Source of the DNA: Candidatus Brocadiaceae bacterium
Lineage (GTDB): Bacteria; Planctomycetota; Brocadiia; SM23-32
Direction of reading: 5' to 3'
Length of the DNA: 64,000 bases
NCBI GenBank assembly: GCA_003551305.1
Contig: PUMJ01000050.1
Location: 12,073 to 76,072 of the forward strand
This document shows positions 545 through 18,160 of this stretch, one piece after another. Under the pieces are notes generated by a model that had not been told where the DNA came from, ran no database searches, and saw only the letters and a list, made by a program, of their open reading frames with translations. Numbering within the stretch: the stretch's first letter is position 1; each line of letters begins with the position of its first letter. Both the position numbers and the translations under genes were made by a program.

Positions 545-1516
545 TTGCGGACTCGCGGAAAGGAGGGGCACGTGAGCATAGCGCTTCAAGGCGAAAATGA
601 ACGTGACGGACCTGAACCGCTGTACGAAACTGATCTCGGAACGTGCTACGTTGGGGATTCAAGGGACATCCTACCTTATGTGCCTTCTGATTCCATCGAC
701 CTGCTGATCACTTCGCCTCCGTTCGCCCTGACACGGAAGAAGGAGTACGGCAACAAAGACTCGGATCAATACGTGGATTGGTTTCTGACCTTCGTGCCCG
801 AGATTCATCGCGTGCTGAAGCCGAGAGGCAGCTTTGTGCTCGACCTCGGGGGTGCCTATCTTCCCGGGGCTCCGGTTCGGACGATCTACCAGTTCGACCT
901 CTTGGTCAGACTCTGCAAAGATTACGAGTTTTACCTTGCCCAAGAGTTTTTCCACTACAATCCTTCCCGGCTGCCCTCACCGGCAGAATGGGTGAACATT
1001 CGCCGCATTCGAGTGAAGGATGCCGTCAACTTGGTCTGGTGGTTGTCCATTACGGAAAATCCCAAGGCGGACAACACCCGTGTGCTGAAACCGTATAGCG
1101 ACAGCATGGAGACTCTTCTGAAAAACGGCTACAAAACCAAGCGACGGCCCAGTGGCCACAAGATATCGGGGAACTTCGCAAGACGTAACGATGGTGCAAT
1201 TCCTCCGAATCTACTTGAATTACCCAATACACGCAGCAACACGCTGTATCTGCGTCGGTGTCGTGAACGAGGCCTGAAACCACATCCGGCGCGCTTCCCG
1301 GAGGAGTTTCCGGAGTTCTTCATAGATTTTCTGACAGAGCCCGGCGATACGGTCTTGGACATTTTTGCGGGGTCCAACACGACAGGATTCGTGGCCGAAC
1401 GAAAGAGCAGGCAATGGCTGGCCTTCGAGAAGAGTTTGGAGTACGCCAGGGCCAGCGCATTCAGATTTGAAACCCCCGGCGAACTCTTCCCGGACGTGAA
1501 AAATGCGTCAGCTTGA
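545..1516 (+). CDS. DNA methyltransferase, beta-class N4/N6 family (motif IV SPPF precedes motif I FAGSNTTG); probable N4-cytosine MTase
   Basis: Carries DLLITSPPFAL (motif IV) and VLDIFAGSNTTG (motif I) in the beta-class order. An in-frame GTG at 572 behind AAAGGAGGGG is an alternative start. The 3' end overlaps the next gene by 14 nt. Confidence 0.8.
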   Translation: MRTRGKEGHVSIALQGENERDGPEPLYETDLGTCYVGDSRDILPYVPSDSIDLLITSPPFALTRKKEYGNKDSDQYVDWFLTFVPEIHRVLKPRGSFVLDLGGAYLPGAPVRTIYQFDLLVRLCKDYEFYLAQEFFHYNPSRLPSPAEWVNIRRIRVKDAVNLVWWLSITENPKADNTRVLKPYSDSMETLLKNGYKTKRRPSGHKISGNFARRNDGAIPPNLLELPNTRSNTLYLRRCRERGLKPHPARFPEEFPEFFIDFLTEPGDTVLDIFAGSNTTGFVAERKSRQWLAFEKSLEYARASAFRFETPGELFPDVKNASA

Positions 1517-2495
1517 CAAAGAGGGCCTGCTTACACGGGTGCAGCGGGCACTGCGGGAGTGCGGGGCGTGTTTCGAACGGACCTCACCTCGCGGCGAGCA
1601 TCCTGCATACTTTGATCTCTACGAACCTGTTGGACTGAAACTGCGCGTCTACATCTGGAACATCACTCACGGTGGGGCCACGCGTCCTGCTGATGAATAC
1701 CGCATACAAGTTACAGGCGTGGGGAGCCTGCTGGCCAATGATCAGCATAAGACGCTCATCCTCGGCTGGCGCAACGGCTCAGGAATATTCGCCGCCTGGG
1801 ACCCGGTCCGTCACGCTGGGCCGGTGAGCAGTTCGCCCTCCATGCAGATCAAGGAGGAGACTCTCCAGGAGGCTGCCCTGCGGGGAGTATCGCTCTGCTA
1901 CCGGGGTGAGGGCGAGATTACGGTAGCCTTCACACCTTCGATGTTCCTTGCCTATGTTCAGCACCAATCAGGCCTGCATGTGGATGCGCATCCGCCCGAA
2001 TGGGTCCAGGAGGTTAACGAAGCCGTGACCCGAGCGTCGGAGTCGGCTTCGCCGCTTCCTATGCCGGCGGACAAGGCTGATCCGCGCGAGCGGACGGTTA
2101 CAGAGGTGGCGCGCATTGTCAGAGACAGCAGCTTCCGTTCCAGGGTTCTCGGGGCTTATGCCCACAGCTGTGCGGCCTGCGGGCTTCAACTGGACTTGGT
2201 TGAAGCCGCGCATATTGTGCCTGTCCGGCATGCTGAAAGCACGGACGAGACGCCCAATGGGCTGTGCCTGTGTGCTCTACACCACAAAGCGATGGATCAA
2301 GCACTTATCAGGATTGAGGTCGATTACCGGCTTTCCGTGAACCCGGACAGGCTGGAGGATCTGCGCGAGGCGAGAAGGATCAAAGGTCTCAAGGATTTCA
2401 CAGGTGCTTTGCGTGACATGATCAAGCTTCCGCCCGAGCCGAAACTCAGGCCCAATCCGGAGTACATCAAACTTCGCAACTCGCTCAAAACGTAA
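1503..2495 (+). CDS. HNH-motif endonuclease with an uncharacterised N-terminal domain; putative restriction endonuclease partner of the MTase
   Basis: C-terminal HNH signature SCAACG...AAHIVP...NGLCLCALHH. Translationally coupled to the MTase through a 14-nt overlap, and sits in the same low-GC segment. Confidence 0.65.
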   Translation: MRQLDKEGLLTRVQRALRECGACFERTSPRGEHPAYFDLYEPVGLKLRVYIWNITHGGATRPADEYRIQVTGVGSLLANDQHKTLILGWRNGSGIFAAWDPVRHAGPVSSSPSMQIKEETLQEAALRGVSLCYRGEGEITVAFTPSMFLAYVQHQSGLHVDAHPPEWVQEVNEAVTRASESASPLPMPADKADPRERTVTEVARIVRDSSFRSRVLGAYAHSCAACGLQLDLVEAAHIVPVRHAESTDETPNGLCLCALHHKAMDQALIRIEVDYRLSVNPDRLEDLREARRIKGLKDFTGALRDMIKLPPEPKLRPNPEYIKLRNSLKT

Positions 2496-3627: not shown

Positions 3628-4564
3628 TGCGGTCCTCCTCGATCGGCTGTCCTGTCAGTTCCAGGAACACGTCTTCCAGGCTCGGCTTGCAGGTGGCTAT
3701 CTCCGCGATGTCAACTCCGCGGCGCTCGGCGAGCCTGACCACCTCCGTGGCGACCCGGCCGGGCTGCTCCGAGTAGAGGCGGAAGCCGCCGGCCCGGCTC
3801 AGGCGCTTCACCCCCGCCAGCGCGGCAAGCTCATCCTCCGGCGGGAGGCCGTCGGTGAAGCTGACCTGCACGTACTGGCTCGACTTCATCGCGTCGCGGA
3901 GCTGGTCCGGGGTGTCTATGGCGACGATGCGGCCCTTGTTGATGATGGCCACCCGGTCGCAGACCTCCTCGGCCTCGGCCATGTTGTGCGTGGTGAGGAA
4001 GACGGTCAGGCCCTCCCGGTTCATGTCGCGCACGATGTTGCGTATCAGGCGGGCGCTGTGCACGTCGAGGCCGCTGGTCGGCTCGTCCAGGAAGAGTATC
4101 TCCGGCCCGCTCACCAGGGCCGAGCAGAGCATCAGGCGCTGGCGCAGGCCCTTGGAGAGGGCGCGGGCTTTCTGCCCTTTGCGGTCGCCCAGGCCGAGAT
4201 TCTTGAGCAGGCGCTCGCCTTCCTCCTCCCGGCGGGCGCGCGGCACGCCGTGCAACTCCGCCATGAGCATCACGTTGCGCCAGACGCTCAGGTCCAGGTA
4301 AACGTTCGCCTCTTCCGGCACGATGCCCAGGTGTGCGCGGGCGTTGAGCGGGTCCCTGCGGATGTCGTGTCCCTGGATGGTCGCCGTGCCCCCGGTGGGG
4401 TCTATGACGCCCGTGAGCATGCGGACGGTCGTCGTCTTGCCCGCCCCGTTGGGGCCGAGGAAGCCGAAGACCTCGCCTTTGTTGACTTCGAACTCGACCC
4501 GGTCCACGGCGGTCAGTTCCCCGAACCGCCGCGTCAGGCCGCGGACCTCAATGCAGGAGGTCAT
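3620..4564 (-). CDS. ABC transporter ATP-binding protein
   Basis: Walker A GPNGAGKTT, signature LSKGLRQRL, Walker B LFLDEPTSGLD. Confidence 0.9.
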   Translation of the reverse strand: MTSCIEVRGLTRRFGELTAVDRVEFEVNKGEVFGFLGPNGAGKTTTVRMLTGVIDPTGGTATIQGHDIRRDPLNARAHLGIVPEEANVYLDLSVWRNVMLMAELHGVPRARREEEGERLLKNLGLGDRKGQKARALSKGLRQRLMLCSALVSGPEILFLDEPTSGLDVHSARLIRNIVRDMNREGLTVFLTTHNMAEAEEVCDRVAIINKGRIVAIDTPDQLRDAMKSSQYVQVSFTDGLPPEDELAALAGVKRLSRAGGFRLYSEQPGRVATEVVRLAERRGVDIAEIATCKPSLEDVFLELTGQPIEEDRNE

Positions 4565-5217
4565 GTCTGTTGTCTCTCCTTGTCTTTCTCAAAGATGAGC
4601 CACATGCCGAGCCCCGTGTCGGGGTCGTCTTCGGGCAGGGCCCCCTCGCCGACCACCTGGACGCGCTCCAGGCCGGCCTGGCGGGCCCAGCGGCGGAACG
4701 TCTCCGGCTTGCGGACCTCCTCGAAGGCGCGGACCGCCTCAGGACCTTTCTTGCGCACGCTCTGGCGGCGACGGCGGATGAACTCCCGCCGCGCCCACAG
4801 GGGATAGGTTTTGCCCAGCCCCCCGCCGAGCATGGCTTTGCCGCCGGGACGCAGCGCGCGGTGGACCTCTCGCACCCCGGCCGGCGGATCGTCCCAGAAG
4901 TAGATGGAGCCGCGGCTGACGACCAGGTCGGCGCAGCCGCGGGCGAGCGGAAGCGACTCCGCTCGCCCCACGACCGGCACCATTCGTCCCTGCAGGCCGC
5001 GCTCAGCGGCCGTCGCCAGCGCCCGCTGCAGGGCCTCTACGTCGGGGTCCAGCAGGACCAGAACGCCGTCTGTGCGCTCGGCCAGCGCGAAACCCAGCGG
5101 GCCTTCGCCGCAGCCAAGGTCAACCCAGACGCCCTGTTGCGGGCTGCACATCTGCATGACATCATGGACGACACACCGGTAGTAGTCCGGCAGGTCGTCG
5201 GCCTGTTGAGCCGGCAT
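4561..5217 (-). CDS. Class I SAM-dependent methyltransferase (small; possibly ArsM-like)
   Basis: Motif I VDLGCGEG, Rossmann-like MTase fold, several Cys residues before motif I. Its 3' end overlaps the ATPase start by 4 nt. Confidence 0.7.
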   Translation of the reverse strand: MPAQQADDLPDYYRCVVHDVMQMCSPQQGVWVDLGCGEGPLGFALAERTDGVLVLLDPDVEALQRALATAAERGLQGRMVPVVGRAESLPLARGCADLVVSRGSIYFWDDPPAGVREVHRALRPGGKAMLGGGLGKTYPLWARREFIRRRRQSVRKKGPEAVRAFEEVRKPETFRRWARQAGLERVQVVGEGALPEDDPDTGLGMWLIFEKDKERQQT

Positions 5218-5247: not shown

Positions 5248-5658
5248 TCACACGCAGGGGTGGTCCGCCCCGTCGCCGTGGCATTCCCGGACCTGCTCGG
5301 GGGAGCACTCGGCGGGCTTGCCCTCCAGCTTCTCGGGGTTCTCGCAGTCCCCGAGTATCTCGTCGGCCTCGTCACAGGTGGGCCGCTCCTCGCAGGCCAG
5401 GCATTCAGCCGGTGTGCAATCGGCGGCGTTTTCGACGCAGGGGTGGCCCTGAACGTCGCCGTGGCACTCCCGGATCTGCTCCGGCGTGCAGTCCTCCGGC
5501 TTGCCCTTCAGCTTGTCCGGCTGTTCACAGACGGCAGTTCCGACGCAGGGGTGGTCCTGAACGTCACCGTGGCACTCCCGGATCTGCTCCGGCGTGCAGT
5601 CCTGCGGCTTGCCCTTCAGCTTGTCCGGTTGCCGGCATCCTTCATGTCCGGTACACAT
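5248..5658 (-). CDS. Cys/His-rich tandem-repeat protein (3 units of ~36 aa, each C-x12-C-x7-C-H-G-D-x3-H-P-C); putative metal or metalloid binding
   Basis: Start MCTGHEG is preceded by GGAGGAGG. The repeats are visible at both DNA and protein level. The 5' end overlaps the arsR stop. Confidence 0.6.
   Translation of the reverse strand: MCTGHEGCRQPDKLKGKPQDCTPEQIRECHGDVQDHPCVGTAVCEQPDKLKGKPEDCTPEQIRECHGDVQGHPCVENAADCTPAECLACEERPTCDEADEILGDCENPEKLEGKPAECSPEQVRECHGDGADHPCV
5433..5640 (-). repeat. Intragenic ~108-bp tandem repeat (2 near-identical units, plus a third diverged unit at ~5280-5400)
   Basis: Unit 5433-5540 versus 5541-5640: >90% identical, in-frame, 36 codons each. Confidence 0.8.
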
Positions 5659-5954
5659 GACTCCTCCTCCTTTTCGGCCGGGGGCGTGAGCACGTGGGTG
5701 ATCACGCGCCGGCACTCCTCAAGTCTCTCGCGGTTCACACGATAGTGCGCGAAATTGCCCTGTTTTTCGCGTTCAACCAGTCCGGCGTCGCGCAGTATGC
5801 GCAGGTGCTGGCTGACGGCGGCGGACGTCATGTCCAGCCGGGCCGCCAGCGCCCCGACGCACAGGACGCGTTCCTCCAGCAACTGCACGATCTGAACGCG
5901 TGCGGCGACGCCGAAAAGCTTGAACAGCCGCGCGGCCTCTTCCGGGTCAATCAT
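5616..5954 (-). CDS. ArsR/SmtB family metal(loid)-responsive transcriptional repressor
   Basis: Winged-HTH ArsR signature ...LCVGALAARL...AAVSQHLRILRDAGLV. Strong RBS AAAGGAGGTG before the ATG. Confidence 0.85.
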   Translation of the reverse strand: MIDPEEAARLFKLFGVAARVQIVQLLEERVLCVGALAARLDMTSAAVSQHLRILRDAGLVEREKQGNFAHYRVNRERLEECRRVITHVLTPPAEKEEESCVPDMKDAGNRTS

Positions 5955-11131: not shown

Positions 11132-12024
11132 TCAGTAGTTTTCCAGATATTCGTCCGGTTCCATCCCGTCCATCAGCTCGCGCCAGAACGAGGGGGACGG
11201 TCGGTTGACCTCGACCATGACCTCTTCGGCGTCCTCGAGGAACTCGTGGAGGGCGCGGGTGAGGGGCAGTTCGAAGCCGCGTCGTTCGGCCTCGGCCAGG
11301 TAGTAGGCGAGTTGCCCGGACTTGACGCCCACATCCGTCGCCCTGCCCTGGGGTATCAGGTGGGCGAGGTCGGCCAGTTCCCGGCGCCATCCGTCCTCGC
11401 CGCCGACGCCGCGGATGACGGCCTCCAGCTCTGCGCCGGCCCGCACGCCCAGGGCCAGCGCCTCCAGCAGGGCGGCGCGGCGCAGGCCCATGGCAAGCTG
11501 GTTTACGCCTTTGACGACCTGGCCGCAGCCGCTGGGCCCGCAGTAGACGATGTGGTCGGGCTCGCCGAGCACCTCCAGCAGGGGGCGGTGGCGCTCGAAC
11601 ACGGCCCGCTCGCCGCCGGCGAACATGCGCAACGTGCCGGCCCTGGCCCCGCCGGCCCCCCCGCTGACGGGCACGTCCAGCAACGTGGCGTCGCGCTCGG
11701 CGAACTCGTTGGCCAGCCGGCGCGTCCGGGGTGGCGCCACTGTCCCCAGGTCTATGAATACCTGGTGCGGCCGGGCGTTGGGTACAAGCTCCGCCTCGGC
11801 CACCTCGACGAAGGTCCGGGAATGGGGCAGGGAGGTCAGCACGGGGTCGGCCCGGCAGGCGACATCGGCGGCGGATTCGGCGGGCGCCGCGCCCGCCTCC
11901 ACCGCGACCTCCAGCGCCTCGGGCGCGATGTCGTACGCGATCAGGGGGTAACCTGCGGCGAGGAGGTTGCGCGCCATGGGCCCGCCCATGGACCCGAGTC
12001 CGATAAAGCCGGTTTCCGAGGACA
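11132..12024 (-). CDS. NAD(P)-dependent oxidoreductase, 3-hydroxyisobutyrate dehydrogenase / 6PGDH-like family
   Basis: N-terminal GFIGLGSMGGPMARNL dinucleotide-binding motif. Start taken at MSSETGF (12024), not the upstream extension. Lies 21 nt upstream of dprA on the same strand. Confidence 0.8.
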
Positions 12025-12235
12025 TGTCGGGTTCTCCGATCAGTGAGTAGGTGCGGTTTGCCCGAGCGGGGCCGTGCGGCTCCAGTATACGAGCCGGCGG
12101 CAGGCTTTGCACCCGCCACGGGGAGCGCCGGGTACTTGACACCGACGCCTCGTGATAATAGGGTAAATGGTACGTGGCGGGTCCATTAGGAGCGCGCCAT
12201 GAGGTTCTCGAAGCTTACCGGAGGTTGAGCGGGCC

Positions 12236-13966
12236 ATGATTGCTCTGTCAGATCGTCGCTGGCCGTTTGCTGCCGTTGCTCTGCTGGTGGTGGCCCTGGC
12301 GGTTGCCGTGCTACCTACCGGTTGCGGCAGACCGGATGATCCGGAGTTTTACGTCCAGCAGTTGGCCAGCGAGCGGGACGAGACGCGGCGACGCGCCATT
12401 GAAGAGCTGACGCGGATGCAGGAGCGCGCCATACCCGCCATCGAGGAAGGGCTGCAAAGCGACGATCCCCGGGTGCGTTCCGCCTGCCTGCAGGTGCTGG
12501 GCAGGACGCGCCGGATAAGCTCCCTGCTGACGGCCGGCGAGATGCTGGACGACCCCGACGAGGACGTTCGCCTCCAGGCCATCGAGACAGTGGCCGAACT
12601 GTCCGCCGTCTGGACCGAGAGGAGCACTGAACTGCTGGGCAAGGCGCTGCGCCAGGACAACCCCGAGGTGATCCAGAGAGCCGCCCAGGGTCTGAGGGAA
12701 CTGCACGAAGCCGAGGCCATCGAGGTACTGCGTCAGGAGTATGAACAAGGGGATGGGTTGTCCGCCATCTATGCCGCCCGCCACCTCTACGAGGAAGAAC
12801 CCGCGCCGGAGATCGCGCGCTTCCTGCTGGAATCGGTGCGCGCGGGCGCAGATGATGAAATCGAGGCCGCCCGCTCCGCCCTGAAGGAGCTGCAAGACCG
12901 CATCGTGCCGGAACTGGTCGAGTTCGCCGGCCGGCACGGCGGCCGCCCGGAGGAGTTGCTGATCGAGACCCGCGACGACCTGATAGCCGAACTGAACCGA
13001 ATACTGGATGCCCGACGGGCGCAGGACATCCTGGCCGCCCTCGGCGTGATAGCCGATGAGCCGAGCGTCGAGAAGCTGATCACCGACATGCAGGACACGC
13101 GCCTGCAGAGTTCCTGGCGCGTGGCGGCGGCCGACGCCCTGGGCACGGCGGCCGCCTCCGACCGCAGCACCCGCCCGCTACGGCGCCGCATCACCGAAGC
13201 GCTCAACCAGACGATGGACAGGGGCAGGGAAGACAACCGCGTCCGGATAGCGGCGGCCATCTCCCTGTGCCGGCTGCGCCAGGACTCCGGTGTCGAATAC
13301 CTGCTGACACAGCTCGACCGGTTCCAGGACATCGTCGGCGGCGAGCAGAGGCTCAGCGGTTCGGAACTGGACGCCCTGAAAGAACTGCGCATCCGCGCCC
13401 AGGAAGCCCTGACGGCCTCCGGCGAGTTCGTGGTCGAGCCCCTGCGCCAGAGGCTCACGGCGGATGAAGAACCCGGCCCGATCATCATCTGGGCGGCGGT
13501 CAAGACCTTCGGCGAGCTGAGGGTCGATGACACGGTGCCGCTTATGCGCCGGTTCATCCTGGACCGGCGCGAGCCCACCGAACAGCGTCCGCTCATAGAG
13601 GTCCGGGAAGACGGGCAACTGAGCGTGGAAGTGGTCCTGCCCAACTGGCAGGAACCCGACGAACAGGAAGTCCGGGCTTTGATCGACGAGCTGGAGCCGT
13701 TCAGGTATCCGGAATACGTGCGATGGACGGTGGCCAACGCGCTGCGGCAGATAGGCGGGCAGGAAGCCGAGGACATCCTGGCCGAGGCCGCCGGCGAGAA
13801 GCAGGACTTCGTGGACCGGCTGCGCGCCAACCAGGACCTGCGGGACTACCACATGCGCGCGCCCGTCATCGAAGGGCTTATTGCCCGCCACGAGGATGTG
13901 CTCTTCTACGTGAGGCTGGCGATGGAGCAGCTCGGCATGCCGCTGGTGGCTCAGACGGGGTCGTAA
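12236..13966 (+). CDS. HEAT/PBS-lyase repeat lipoprotein
   Basis: Lipoprotein-type signal (..LPTGCG) followed by many HEAT-like repeats (DP.VR..A...LG). Confidence 0.7.
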
Positions 13967-17730: not shown

Positions 17731-18160
17731 TGTGGCTCCAATGCTTTGAGTGAGAGGTCAACCCGCTCCCTGCGGGCCTATCCTCATTATATGAGCCCGC
17801 CGCCCGGAACGCCACCCCGTCCGTCCCGACGGACTCGTGTTGTCGGGGCGCCGCCGCCCCAACGGGACGCCGCTCCGAAAGAGCGCCATATACCAGCCCC
17901 GGGCGCAGCCCGGGGTCCCCCGAACGCCCCCGAAACCCGCGCCCTGAATGGGCGCCACAGGGGTTGCAGGAGGAATGCGTGGCATCCGCCTGCCCTGTCT
18001 GCGTGCAAGGCGCAGGCCGGCGCAAACCGGCAGTCGGAAAAAGCGGCGGCAAGCGGCGCGCTCACAGAGCGCGCCGCACTCCAGGGGACGCGGCCCGGAC
18101 GATGCAGGGCTGTGCGACATGCACGAACGGTGATCACTGGAGTCCGGACCGGCGTTTCGT

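Follow-up and report, generated by a model that had tools for sequence, protein, structure and literature searches.

The PvuII system of Proteus vulgaris combines M.PvuII, an N4-cytosine methylase for CAGCTG, with R.PvuII, a PD-(D/E)XK enzyme of ~157 aa, and the controller C.PvuII, and its gene organisation is divergent. The N-terminal domain of TagI (SRA-HNH) and of VcaM4I (EVE-HNH) reads DNA and has no nuclease role; these two and the phosphorothioate-dependent ScoMcrA-type enzymes belong to the stand-alone Type IV enzymes that depend on modification, in which an N-terminal DNA-reading domain (SRA, EVE or SBD) is joined by a helical connector to a C-terminal HNH_2 domain. HNH-type nucleases are also found among Type II restriction enzymes, as in KpnI, Hpy99I and PacI. 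[quoted passage not shown] Searching the literature for an HNH enzyme that cuts CAGCTG and for MTaX1 yielded a single relevant sentence, and no biochemical characterisation of any member of the MTaX1-HNH family was found there.

We analysed a 64-kb stretch of DNA, referred to below as the window, that contains an M.PvuII-like methylase gene followed by a nuclease gene. We consider it most probable, at roughly 0.72, that the two genes form a mobile Type II R-M cassette (about 454–2496), most probably specific for CAGCTG, in which the methylase protects the DNA, the HNH domain cuts it and the MTaX1 domain reads it. The cassette is a further member of a family that is known computationally and is biochemically uncharacterised. 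The features of the locus are as follows.

30–452: prepilin-peptidase ORF, with a Peptidase_A24 match
362–453, + strand: left 92-nt direct repeat, in frame as the 3' end of this prepilin-peptidase ORF, ending ...LEHLAATLLG and stop
454–571, + strand: cassette leader, with a Shine-Dalgarno sequence AAGGAGG at 560–566
513–541: candidate weak promoter in the leader, seen by eye only (TTGACG 513–518, 17-nt spacer, TAGTCT 536–541)
545–1516, + strand: M.PvuII-like methylase ORF, 323 aa from TTG as the longest ORF; likelier start GTG 572
1503–1516, + strand: 14-nt overlap of methylase and nuclease genes (nuclease ATG 1503–1505, methylase stop TGA 1514–1516)
1503–2495, + strand: partner nuclease ORF, 330 aa, ATG start
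1503–1982, + strand: MTaX1 domain, aa 1–160 (Pfam match aa 46–152), predicted PD-(D/E)XK fold
1650–1676, 1695–1718 and 1833–1847: conserved MTaX1 motifs YIWNITHGG, EYRIQVTG and SPSMQ, respectively
1983–2117, + strand: helical linker, aa 161–205, poorly conserved and of lower pLDDT
2118–2372, + strand: HNH (beta-beta-alpha-Me) nuclease domain, aa 206–290
2165–2170: sole CAGCTG of the window, in the nuclease gene at codons H221-S222-C223
2497–2588, + strand: right 92-nt direct repeat, starting one base past the nuclease stop; an orphan second copy of the prepilin-peptidase 3' end

The insert is 2,043 bp long and of atypical GC content (0.566 vs 0.685), and the two repeat copies that bound it are 92% identical by repeat search and alignment. 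No other ORF inside it has a Pfam match, and a transposase or integrase is absent. The locus thus has the composition described for such inserts by Furuta et al. (2010): the R and M genes lie inside, the insert is shorter than 20 kb, the direct duplication exceeds 30 bp and there are no other mobility genes. The cassette would have inserted at the prepilin-peptidase 3' end, duplicating 92 nt of its target, and was apparently acquired recently. When metagenome contigs were scanned for exact matches to the repeat core, neither an empty site nor a near-identical contig came up. Flanking direct repeats were rejected as a family-wide trait, since comparable ones are present in only 2–4 of 75 related loci.

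A sequence-only reading of this DNA had described the two ORFs as a compact pair overlapping by 14 nt, with no controller (C) protein nearby. Both ORFs are present and the overlap agrees with the coordinates given above. The small ORFs flanking the pair gave zero Pfam matches, and no helix-turn-helix controller of the C.PvuII type was found among them, in keeping with that reading and in contrast to the PvuII system. The gene order also differs from the divergent PvuII arrangement, as the cassette genes are co-directional and overlapping, M then R. Across 72 related loci the two genes overlap in 41 and are separated by 0–30 nt in 26, so that the junction is tight in 67/72. We discarded a division into 'tight' and 'gapped' layouts with a C protein in the gap, because what fills the gap is the extended C-terminus of a longer methylase (L002, 422 aa). 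A scan for consensus promoters and terminators gave nothing convincing for the cassette and did not report the TTGACG/TAGTCT candidate. For the methylase, the GTG start at 572 (314 aa) is more likely than the TTG at 545, because AAGGAGG ends 5 nt before the former whereas the latter has no such signal.

In the methylase, motif IV (SPPF; aa 57–60, nt 713–724) lies upstream of motif I (FAGSNTTG; aa 274–281, nt 1364–1387). The protein matches PF01555 at E=4e-35 (122 bits vs a gathering cut-off of 26.7), and the motif coordinates bear out the beta-class order recognised earlier. M.PvuII (PDB 1BOO) shares this order and is 57% identical over 291 aa (E=2e-112, 379 bits), with methylase residues 22–309 aligned to 1BOO residues 5–295, which amounts to full-length homology. 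The PADLOC MTase_II model PDLC03323 matches as well (E=2.5e-127). The initial leaning towards N4mC, drawn from the SPPF motif, is backed by the 57% identity to an N4-cytosine methylase, and on this ground the beta-class enzyme is almost certainly N4-cytosine-specific. With 379 bits against M.PvuII for the methylase and 100 bits against MTaX1 for the nuclease, these features do not reflect chance.

The Pfam profile search proposed with the sequence-only reading matched both proteins, the nuclease consisting of MTaX1 (PF20296) and HNH_2 (PF13391) with no other domain in it. R.PvuII is unrelated to this 330-aa protein, and a tblastn search of the window and 80 loci with an R.PvuII sequence gave chance matches only. 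We take the cassette to be a Type II R-M system, with CAGCTG its probable target and a nuclease not homologous to R.PvuII. It shares the beta-beta-alpha-Me (HNH) active site with the Type II nucleases KpnI, Hpy99I and PacI, which differ in being without an MTaX1 domain; among solved structures, no sequence match of the cassette nuclease to enzymes of this type was obtained. More than 600 proteins have the whole MTaX1 + HNH_2 architecture, and the family is widespread (408 cluster representatives). An exact-protein match was seen only on a 1.7-kb Logan contig from SRR490150. In 75 of the 80 genomic loci, from many phyla, the homolog lies directly downstream of an M.PvuII-like gene, mostly overlapping it. 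A pair of C5 methylases stands beside the nuclease in four others (in L058 degraded and on the opposite strand), so that a methylase of either kind neighbours the nuclease in 79/80. The pairing kept in 75/80 loci supports the compact Type II R-M pair proposed at the outset.

The hexamer counts of the window bear on the target sequence. CAGCTG occurs once, against about 24–27 sites expected, a stronger depletion than for any other of the 2,728 testable hexamers; the single copy falls within the cassette, leaving the surrounding host DNA with none. The lone site appears to be incidental. We had considered it as a conserved, possibly regulatory site and rejected this, as its position is not common to homologs; the CAGCTG sites of the homologs cluster at the conserved Q229-L230 codons, which indicates a coding by-product. 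CAGCTG is also the top depleted palindrome pooled over 46 independent loci with this cassette type from diverse phyla, and shows no depletion in the 5 loci without an M.PvuII-like gene (30 observed vs 35 expected). The target is very probably CAGCTG, as for M.PvuII. In the 26 loci with longer methylases (51–59% identity) the CAGCTG ratio is 0.58, no stronger than for other palindromes, an observation that counts against this assignment.

The same loci, without special CAGCTG depletion, would fit a pair whose methylase has drifted from M.PvuII to another specificity, the host purge being due to a different, unseen system. Identical specificity is not guaranteed by 57% identity, and GTCGAC (2 vs 15.6 expected) and CTCGAG (17 vs 46 expected) are also depleted in the window, which implies further systems. 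The purge must be old whereas the low-GC cassette looks recent; a second CAGCTG system, whether former or current, could thus have produced it, and a recent-looking insertion in an already purged genome is likewise at odds with our preferred reading. We nevertheless regard a different specificity as quite improbable, given the rank of CAGCTG over the 46 pooled loci and its lack of depletion in the 5 loci where the M.PvuII-like gene is missing.

The C-terminal HNH motif noticed in the initial reading belongs to an intact predicted domain that passes the Pfam HNH_2 threshold (41.7 bits vs a cut-off of 21). It comprises CxxC (aa 223–226), AAHIVP (aa 235–240) and NGLCLCALHH (aa 252–261), and the conserved general-base His, the Asn, the metal-binding His and the Cys zinc ligands are all present; 34 sequences share C223, C226, H237, N252, C257, H260 and H261 without exception. 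When the family profile was compared with solved structures, the HNH domains of TagI (E=3.7e-7) and VcaM4I (E=1.4e-3) emerged as homologous, and the module also resembles the phosphorothioate-dependent family NF045808. The PADLOC Type II HNH model matched aa 192–285, the HNH part only.

That the nearest solved HNH relatives, TagI and VcaM4I, are modification-dependent runs counter to our best explanation. Taken with the resemblance to NF045808, it would suit a Type IV-like nuclease directed at foreign modified DNA, in which case the methylase would have another role, for example placing a self mark that blocks the nuclease. The Aravind passage on MTaX1 would fit such an enzyme, as would a plasmid protein of Hymenobacter cellulosilyticus (WP_311136816.1) that has the same N-terminal MTaX1 (E=1.6e-28) and, in place of HNH, a GmrSD_N/DUF262 module, a Type IV module. 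Its next gene encodes a HEPN protein and no methylase is adjacent, making it an exception to the methylase association of MTaX1. We believe this possibility to be very improbable. The cassette nuclease resembles the TagI, VcaM4I and ScoMcrA type in overall layout, but its reader is predicted to be MTaX1; domain searches found MTaX1 and HNH_2 only, and no SRA, EVE or SBD domain. Unlike those stand-alone enzymes, it has a protective methylase as its near-constant genomic companion (75 M.PvuII-like and 4 C5 pairs in 80 loci), with the genes usually overlapping, and the near-total CAGCTG purge of the host DNA is a prediction of restricting unmethylated sites, not of a modification-dependent enzyme. 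The strict methylase linkage and the purge also make unlikely the methyl-directed or homing nuclease that had been raised as an alternative in the sequence-only reading.

The N-terminal domain had been called novel, but it is already catalogued in Pfam as PF20296, MTaX1 ('Methylase-associated X1'), which it matches over profile positions 2–111 of 111 (E=1.4e-28, 100.1 bits vs a cut-off of 25). Mean identity among homologs is 39% in MTaX1 and 52% in HNH, compared with 13% in the linker. In the predicted structure of the nuclease (model pLDDT 81), MTaX1 has the alpha-beta-beta-beta-alpha-beta core of the PD-(D/E)XK nuclease superfamily, and its closest structural neighbours are I-Ssp6803I, Hjc, the RecU-like PrfA and the SPARDA nuclease subunit; a profile alignment with Hjc (hhalign) gave a probability of <1%. 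The D...(D/E)xK pattern is absent among the conserved MTaX1 columns and on the predicted strands, and the canonical catalytic positions appear to be held by H33, Y50 and W52, as placed by secondary-structure register only. MTaX1 thus appears, on the predicted model, to be a PD-(D/E)XK fold that has lost its canonical catalytic residues. Three acidic residues (E65, D100 and E138) and several polar ones (among them R67 and H104) are invariant across the family.

These invariant residues may be viewed in another way, as a non-canonical PD-(D/E)XK-type site in an R-M cassette with two active nuclease domains, where MTaX1 and HNH would cut one strand each or MTaX1 would cut with HNH assisting. The structures closest to MTaX1 all belong to active nucleases, the residues are kept in C5-paired members too, and Pfam finds no separate nuclease domain in the Hymenobacter MTaX1-GmrSD_N protein. 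We consider two active nuclease domains unlikely, because the usual catalytic pattern is not visible in MTaX1, the HNH active site is complete and invariant, and the N-terminal domain of the related HNH_2 enzymes TagI and VcaM4I is a reader. MTaX1 is an uncertain candidate for the specificity domain that had been presumed. It also occurs fused to GmrSD_N where no methylase is present. The C5-paired members are not more diverged in MTaX1 than the others (0.38 vs 0.39 identity) and keep all its invariant residues, so these residues cannot simply encode a read-out specific to M.PvuII; this too is an observation against our best explanation.

Returning to the CAGCTG-specific R-M cassette, we infer the following course of action. 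The M.PvuII relative would methylate a CAGCTG cytosine at N4, thereby protecting host DNA. The product of the second gene would be the restriction enzyme, its zinc-stabilised C-terminal HNH domain cleaving unmethylated CAGCTG while MTaX1 binds the target and refuses methylated sites. Because the target is palindromic, the enzyme would presumably act as a homodimer. The methylase gene comes first, the nuclease start, preceded by a weak ribosome-binding site, lies within the methylase 3' end, and there is no controller; translational coupling of this kind may give methylase-first, low nuclease expression.

The MTaX1-HNH cassette does not overturn current understanding. For annotation, a bare 'HNH endonuclease' label downstream of an M.PvuII-like methylase can be taken to mark the restriction partner in a probable CAGCTG system, and for enzymology the cassette offers a candidate PvuII isoschizomer of different architecture, in which HNH is joined to a nuclease fold that looks inactivated. 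We tentatively suggest, at somewhat less than even odds, that MTaX1 is a former PD-(D/E)XK nuclease fold that now reads DNA in a methylation-sensitive way and permits a generic HNH cutter to act. If so, the family would be a structurally new Type IIP class and a non-homologous isoschizomer of R.PvuII, and one scaffold would be silenced by N4mC, with an M.PvuII-like partner, or by 5mC, with tandem C5 partners. Silencing by either mark would mean that the scaffold responds to whether the cytosine is methylated and not to a particular methyl position. The family already shows a single nuclease scaffold that swaps N4mC and 5mC methylase partners, a convenient natural experiment in methylation read-out by restriction enzymes.

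The Type II R-M cassette at about 454-2496 is genuine, as the core of the sequence-only reading had it. Its two genes, a methylase gene (M) and a nuclease gene (R), are laid out as follows.

545-1516, forward strand: methylase ORF, 323 aa counted from TTG
713-724, forward strand: SPPF motif of the methylase (aa 57-60)
1364-1387, forward strand: FAGSNTTG motif of the methylase (aa 274-281)
1503-2495, forward strand: nuclease ORF, 330 aa, ATG start; HNH elements CxxC (aa 223-226), AAHIVP (aa 235-240) and NGLCLCALHH (aa 252-261)

Both ORFs lie where that reading had placed them and overlap by 14 nt, the nuclease ATG being at 1503 and the methylase TGA stop at 1514-1516. The reported motif order in the methylase, SPPF first and FAGSNTTG after, and the HNH motif were likewise found in the translated ORFs. 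The methylase probably starts at GTG 572 (314 aa), because AAGGAGG occurs at 560-566, 5 nt ahead of this codon, and no AAGGAGG-like signal stands in front of TTG 545. The protein passed Pfam N6_N4_Mtase with 122 bits and aligned over nearly its full length with M.PvuII (PDB 1BOO; E=2e-112, 57% identity over 291 columns), an N4-cytosine methylase whose target is CAGCTG. This homology lends good support to the earlier assignment of a putative beta-class, N4mC-type enzyme.

A Pfam search placed MTaX1 ("Methylase-associated X1", PF20296) at aa 46-152 of the nuclease, with 100 bits vs a cut-off of 25, and HNH_2 (PF13391) in its C-terminal part. The description of the N-terminal domain as novel is thus wrong, since Pfam already lists the domain and the complete architecture is common: MTaX1 plus HNH_2 was found in >600 proteins of about 330 aa with 38-53% identity, and MTaX1 alone as query returned 408 cluster representatives among 1.84 billion, most of 325-345 aa. 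In the representative library, 30 separate stretches of one 2,817-aa protein (P0121) matched MTaX1 query residues 122-157 (E=6e-54); this is a repeat protein, and the match is possibly a spurious helical-repeat one. In an alignment of 34 homologs, the residues that did not vary were the zinc ligands and catalytic residues of HNH (C223, C226, H237, N252, C257, H260, H261) and H33, P34, Y50, W52, G57, G58, R61, E65, R67, Q69, H104, S111-P112-S113, Q115 and E138 of MTaX1. The AlphaFold2 model built from this alignment had a mean pLDDT of 81, about 90 over the first 170 residues, and its Foldseek matches were the SPARDA nuclease subunit (prob 0.97-0.99), VcaM4I and I-Ssp6803I. Sequence-level matches to solved structures were limited to the HNH module and the preceding helix (TagI, E=3.7e-7; VcaM4I, E=1.4e-3). 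No D…(D/E)xK signature was seen among the conserved MTaX1 columns of the 34 homologs, and a profile alignment of MTaX1 with Hjc was uninformative. MTaX1 is inferred to be a catalytically dead reader; that it is also an active nuclease appears unlikely.

A homolog scan that sampled each species by a single genome gave 80 loci, spread over Chloroflexota, Planctomycetota, Verrucomicrobiota, Bacteroidota, Acidobacteriota, Pseudomonadota and further groups. In 75 of them the nuclease gene adjoined an M.PvuII-like gene (51-74% identity to the window methylase), which in 72 lay upstream on the same strand. The two genes overlapped in 41 of these 72, frequently by 14, 17 or 23 nt, and 0-30 nt separated them in a further 26, so a tight M-then-R junction characterises the family. 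At L002 (8341-9609) and 25 similar loci the methylase was 51-59% identical to the window methylase and exceeded it by about 100 aa through N- and C-terminal extensions that carry no annotation; no extra gene was present there. No controller protein accompanied the pair, which bears out the earlier remark on its absence, and neither did an R.PvuII-like gene (searched for with an approximate R.PvuII sequence). In four of the remaining five loci the nuclease was preceded by an orthologous pair of C5-cytosine methylases, and in the fifth (L080) there was no methylase beside it. The variant cassettes, two tandem C5 methylases followed by the MTaX1-HNH nuclease, were:

L060, 7817-11020
L071, 7551-10855
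L070, 4609-9950, where an Mrr_cat and an HhH-GPD protein separate the nuclease from the methylases
L058, 2338-6001, with the methylase pair on the opposite strand and apparently degraded

In a neighbour-joining tree the C5-paired nucleases were scattered among the M.PvuII-paired ones; their MTaX1 was no more diverged and kept every invariant residue. MTaX1 is a modular domain, because a Hymenobacter plasmid encodes it as a fusion with GmrSD_N, away from any methylase. On a Paracoccus plasmid (NZ_CP102356.1; L084, 2964-6365) a distant MTaX1-HNH protein (27% identity) was flanked by a C5 methylase and an Eco57I-like methylase, the group being inserted between phage terminase and portal genes.

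CAGCTG occurred once in the window vs 27.4 ± 5.1 expected from dinucleotide-preserving shuffles, or 23.6 from a maximal-order Markov model, and was the most under-represented (z=-6.6) of the 2,728 hexamers expected at least 10 times. AGCT was not depleted (336 vs 391), and one-step neighbours were in excess (CAGCTC 75 vs 45.8; CAGCTT 39 vs 27.4). The sole site (2165-2170, codons His221-Ser222-Cys223 of the nuclease gene) appears incidental, and the roughly 62 kb of host DNA outside the cassette had none. Restriction of unmethylated CAGCTG predicts such avoidance, which argues against a modification-dependent nuclease; this alternative is very unlikely. In the pooled 46 compact-methylase loci no other of the 64 palindromic hexamers was as depleted as CAGCTG (39 vs 168.5, ratio 0.23), and the 5 loci lacking an M.PvuII-like gene showed no depletion of it (30 vs 35). 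The 26 long-methylase loci gave a ratio of 0.58, no lower than other palindromes. It is very unlikely that the specificity is other than CAGCTG and the purge owed to another system. Sites in the homologs' nuclease genes (L004, L010, L013, L016, L030, L033, L035, L055, L059, L079) clustered at the conserved Gln229-Leu230 codons (CAG-CTG), a coding by-product. Per kb, M contained 0.28 and R 0.18 CAGCTG sites vs 0.086 in flanking host DNA, a 2-3 times higher density that is consistent with a cassette younger than the host purge. Other palindromes were also strongly under-represented in the window by the Markov model (GTCGAC 2 vs 15.6, CTCGAG 17 vs 46.1, GAGCTC 10 vs 22.1, ATCGAT 0 vs 5.5), which suggests that this genome or lineage has further restriction systems, of SalI-, XhoI-, SacI- or ClaI-like specificity.

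The GC content of the cassette was 0.566 vs 0.685 in the rest of the window, and a 92-nt direct repeat, 92% identical between its copies, bracketed it exactly:

362-453: left copy, the in-frame 3' end of a prepilin-peptidase gene (Peptidase_A24)
2497-2588: right copy, beginning one base past the nuclease stop codon and closing, in register with the left copy, with a stop codon

An "insertion with long target duplication" is defined by R and M within an insert of <20 kb, a duplication of >30 bp and no other mobility genes (Furuta et al. 2010, PMC2853133). The cassette and its repeats show these sequence features and would fit such an insertion. Our search found no empty insertion site for comparison, and few of the related loci had comparable flanking repeats (L040, 149 nt; L073, 59 nt). 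Small Thiothrix and Roseivivax plasmids also carried copies of the cassette, annotated there merely as "site-specific DNA-methyltransferase" and "HNH endonuclease".

Elsewhere in the window, a Cys- and His-rich ORF was found:

5248-5715, reverse strand: 155 aa, with a 108-nt tandem repeat at 5433-5628

Its peptide unit is roughly C..QPDKLKGKP.DCTPEQIRECHGDVQ.HPC, and a Pfam search assigned it to no family. The ORF starts inside the terminal part of an ArsR-family regulator gene (5616-5954, reverse strand), it adjoins a SAM methyltransferase gene (4561-5217, reverse strand), and its product may be a metal-binding protein. An Rfam match to the Acido-Lenti-1 sRNA (17871-17915, reverse strand) lay right at threshold (37.3 vs a gathering score of 37 bits) and hints at a host, of ~68% GC, of Acidobacteriota or Lentisphaerota type. 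A 518-nt permuted 'tmRNA*' called by ARAGORN at 11813-12330 (forward strand) is probably a false positive, because Rfam gave no tmRNA match there and long ORFs cover the stretch.

Alongside the observed gene structure, family membership, synteny, site avoidance, flanking repeat and predicted folds, we infer the following activities for the two proteins. The methylase would be translated first and mark CAGCTG with N4mC; the nuclease, its start codon buried in the methylase 3' end, would be made at a low level. MTaX1 would read the CAGCTG site and reject methylated DNA, and the HNH domain would cut, presumably as a homodimer on the palindrome. The cassette belongs to a family that is known computationally and uncharacterised biochemically. 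Mildly new are its probable CAGCTG specificity, with an M.PvuII relative paired with a nuclease non-homologous to R.PvuII, the PD-(D/E)XK-like fold predicted for MTaX1, and the evidence for swapping of the nuclease scaffold between N4mC and 5mC methylase partners.
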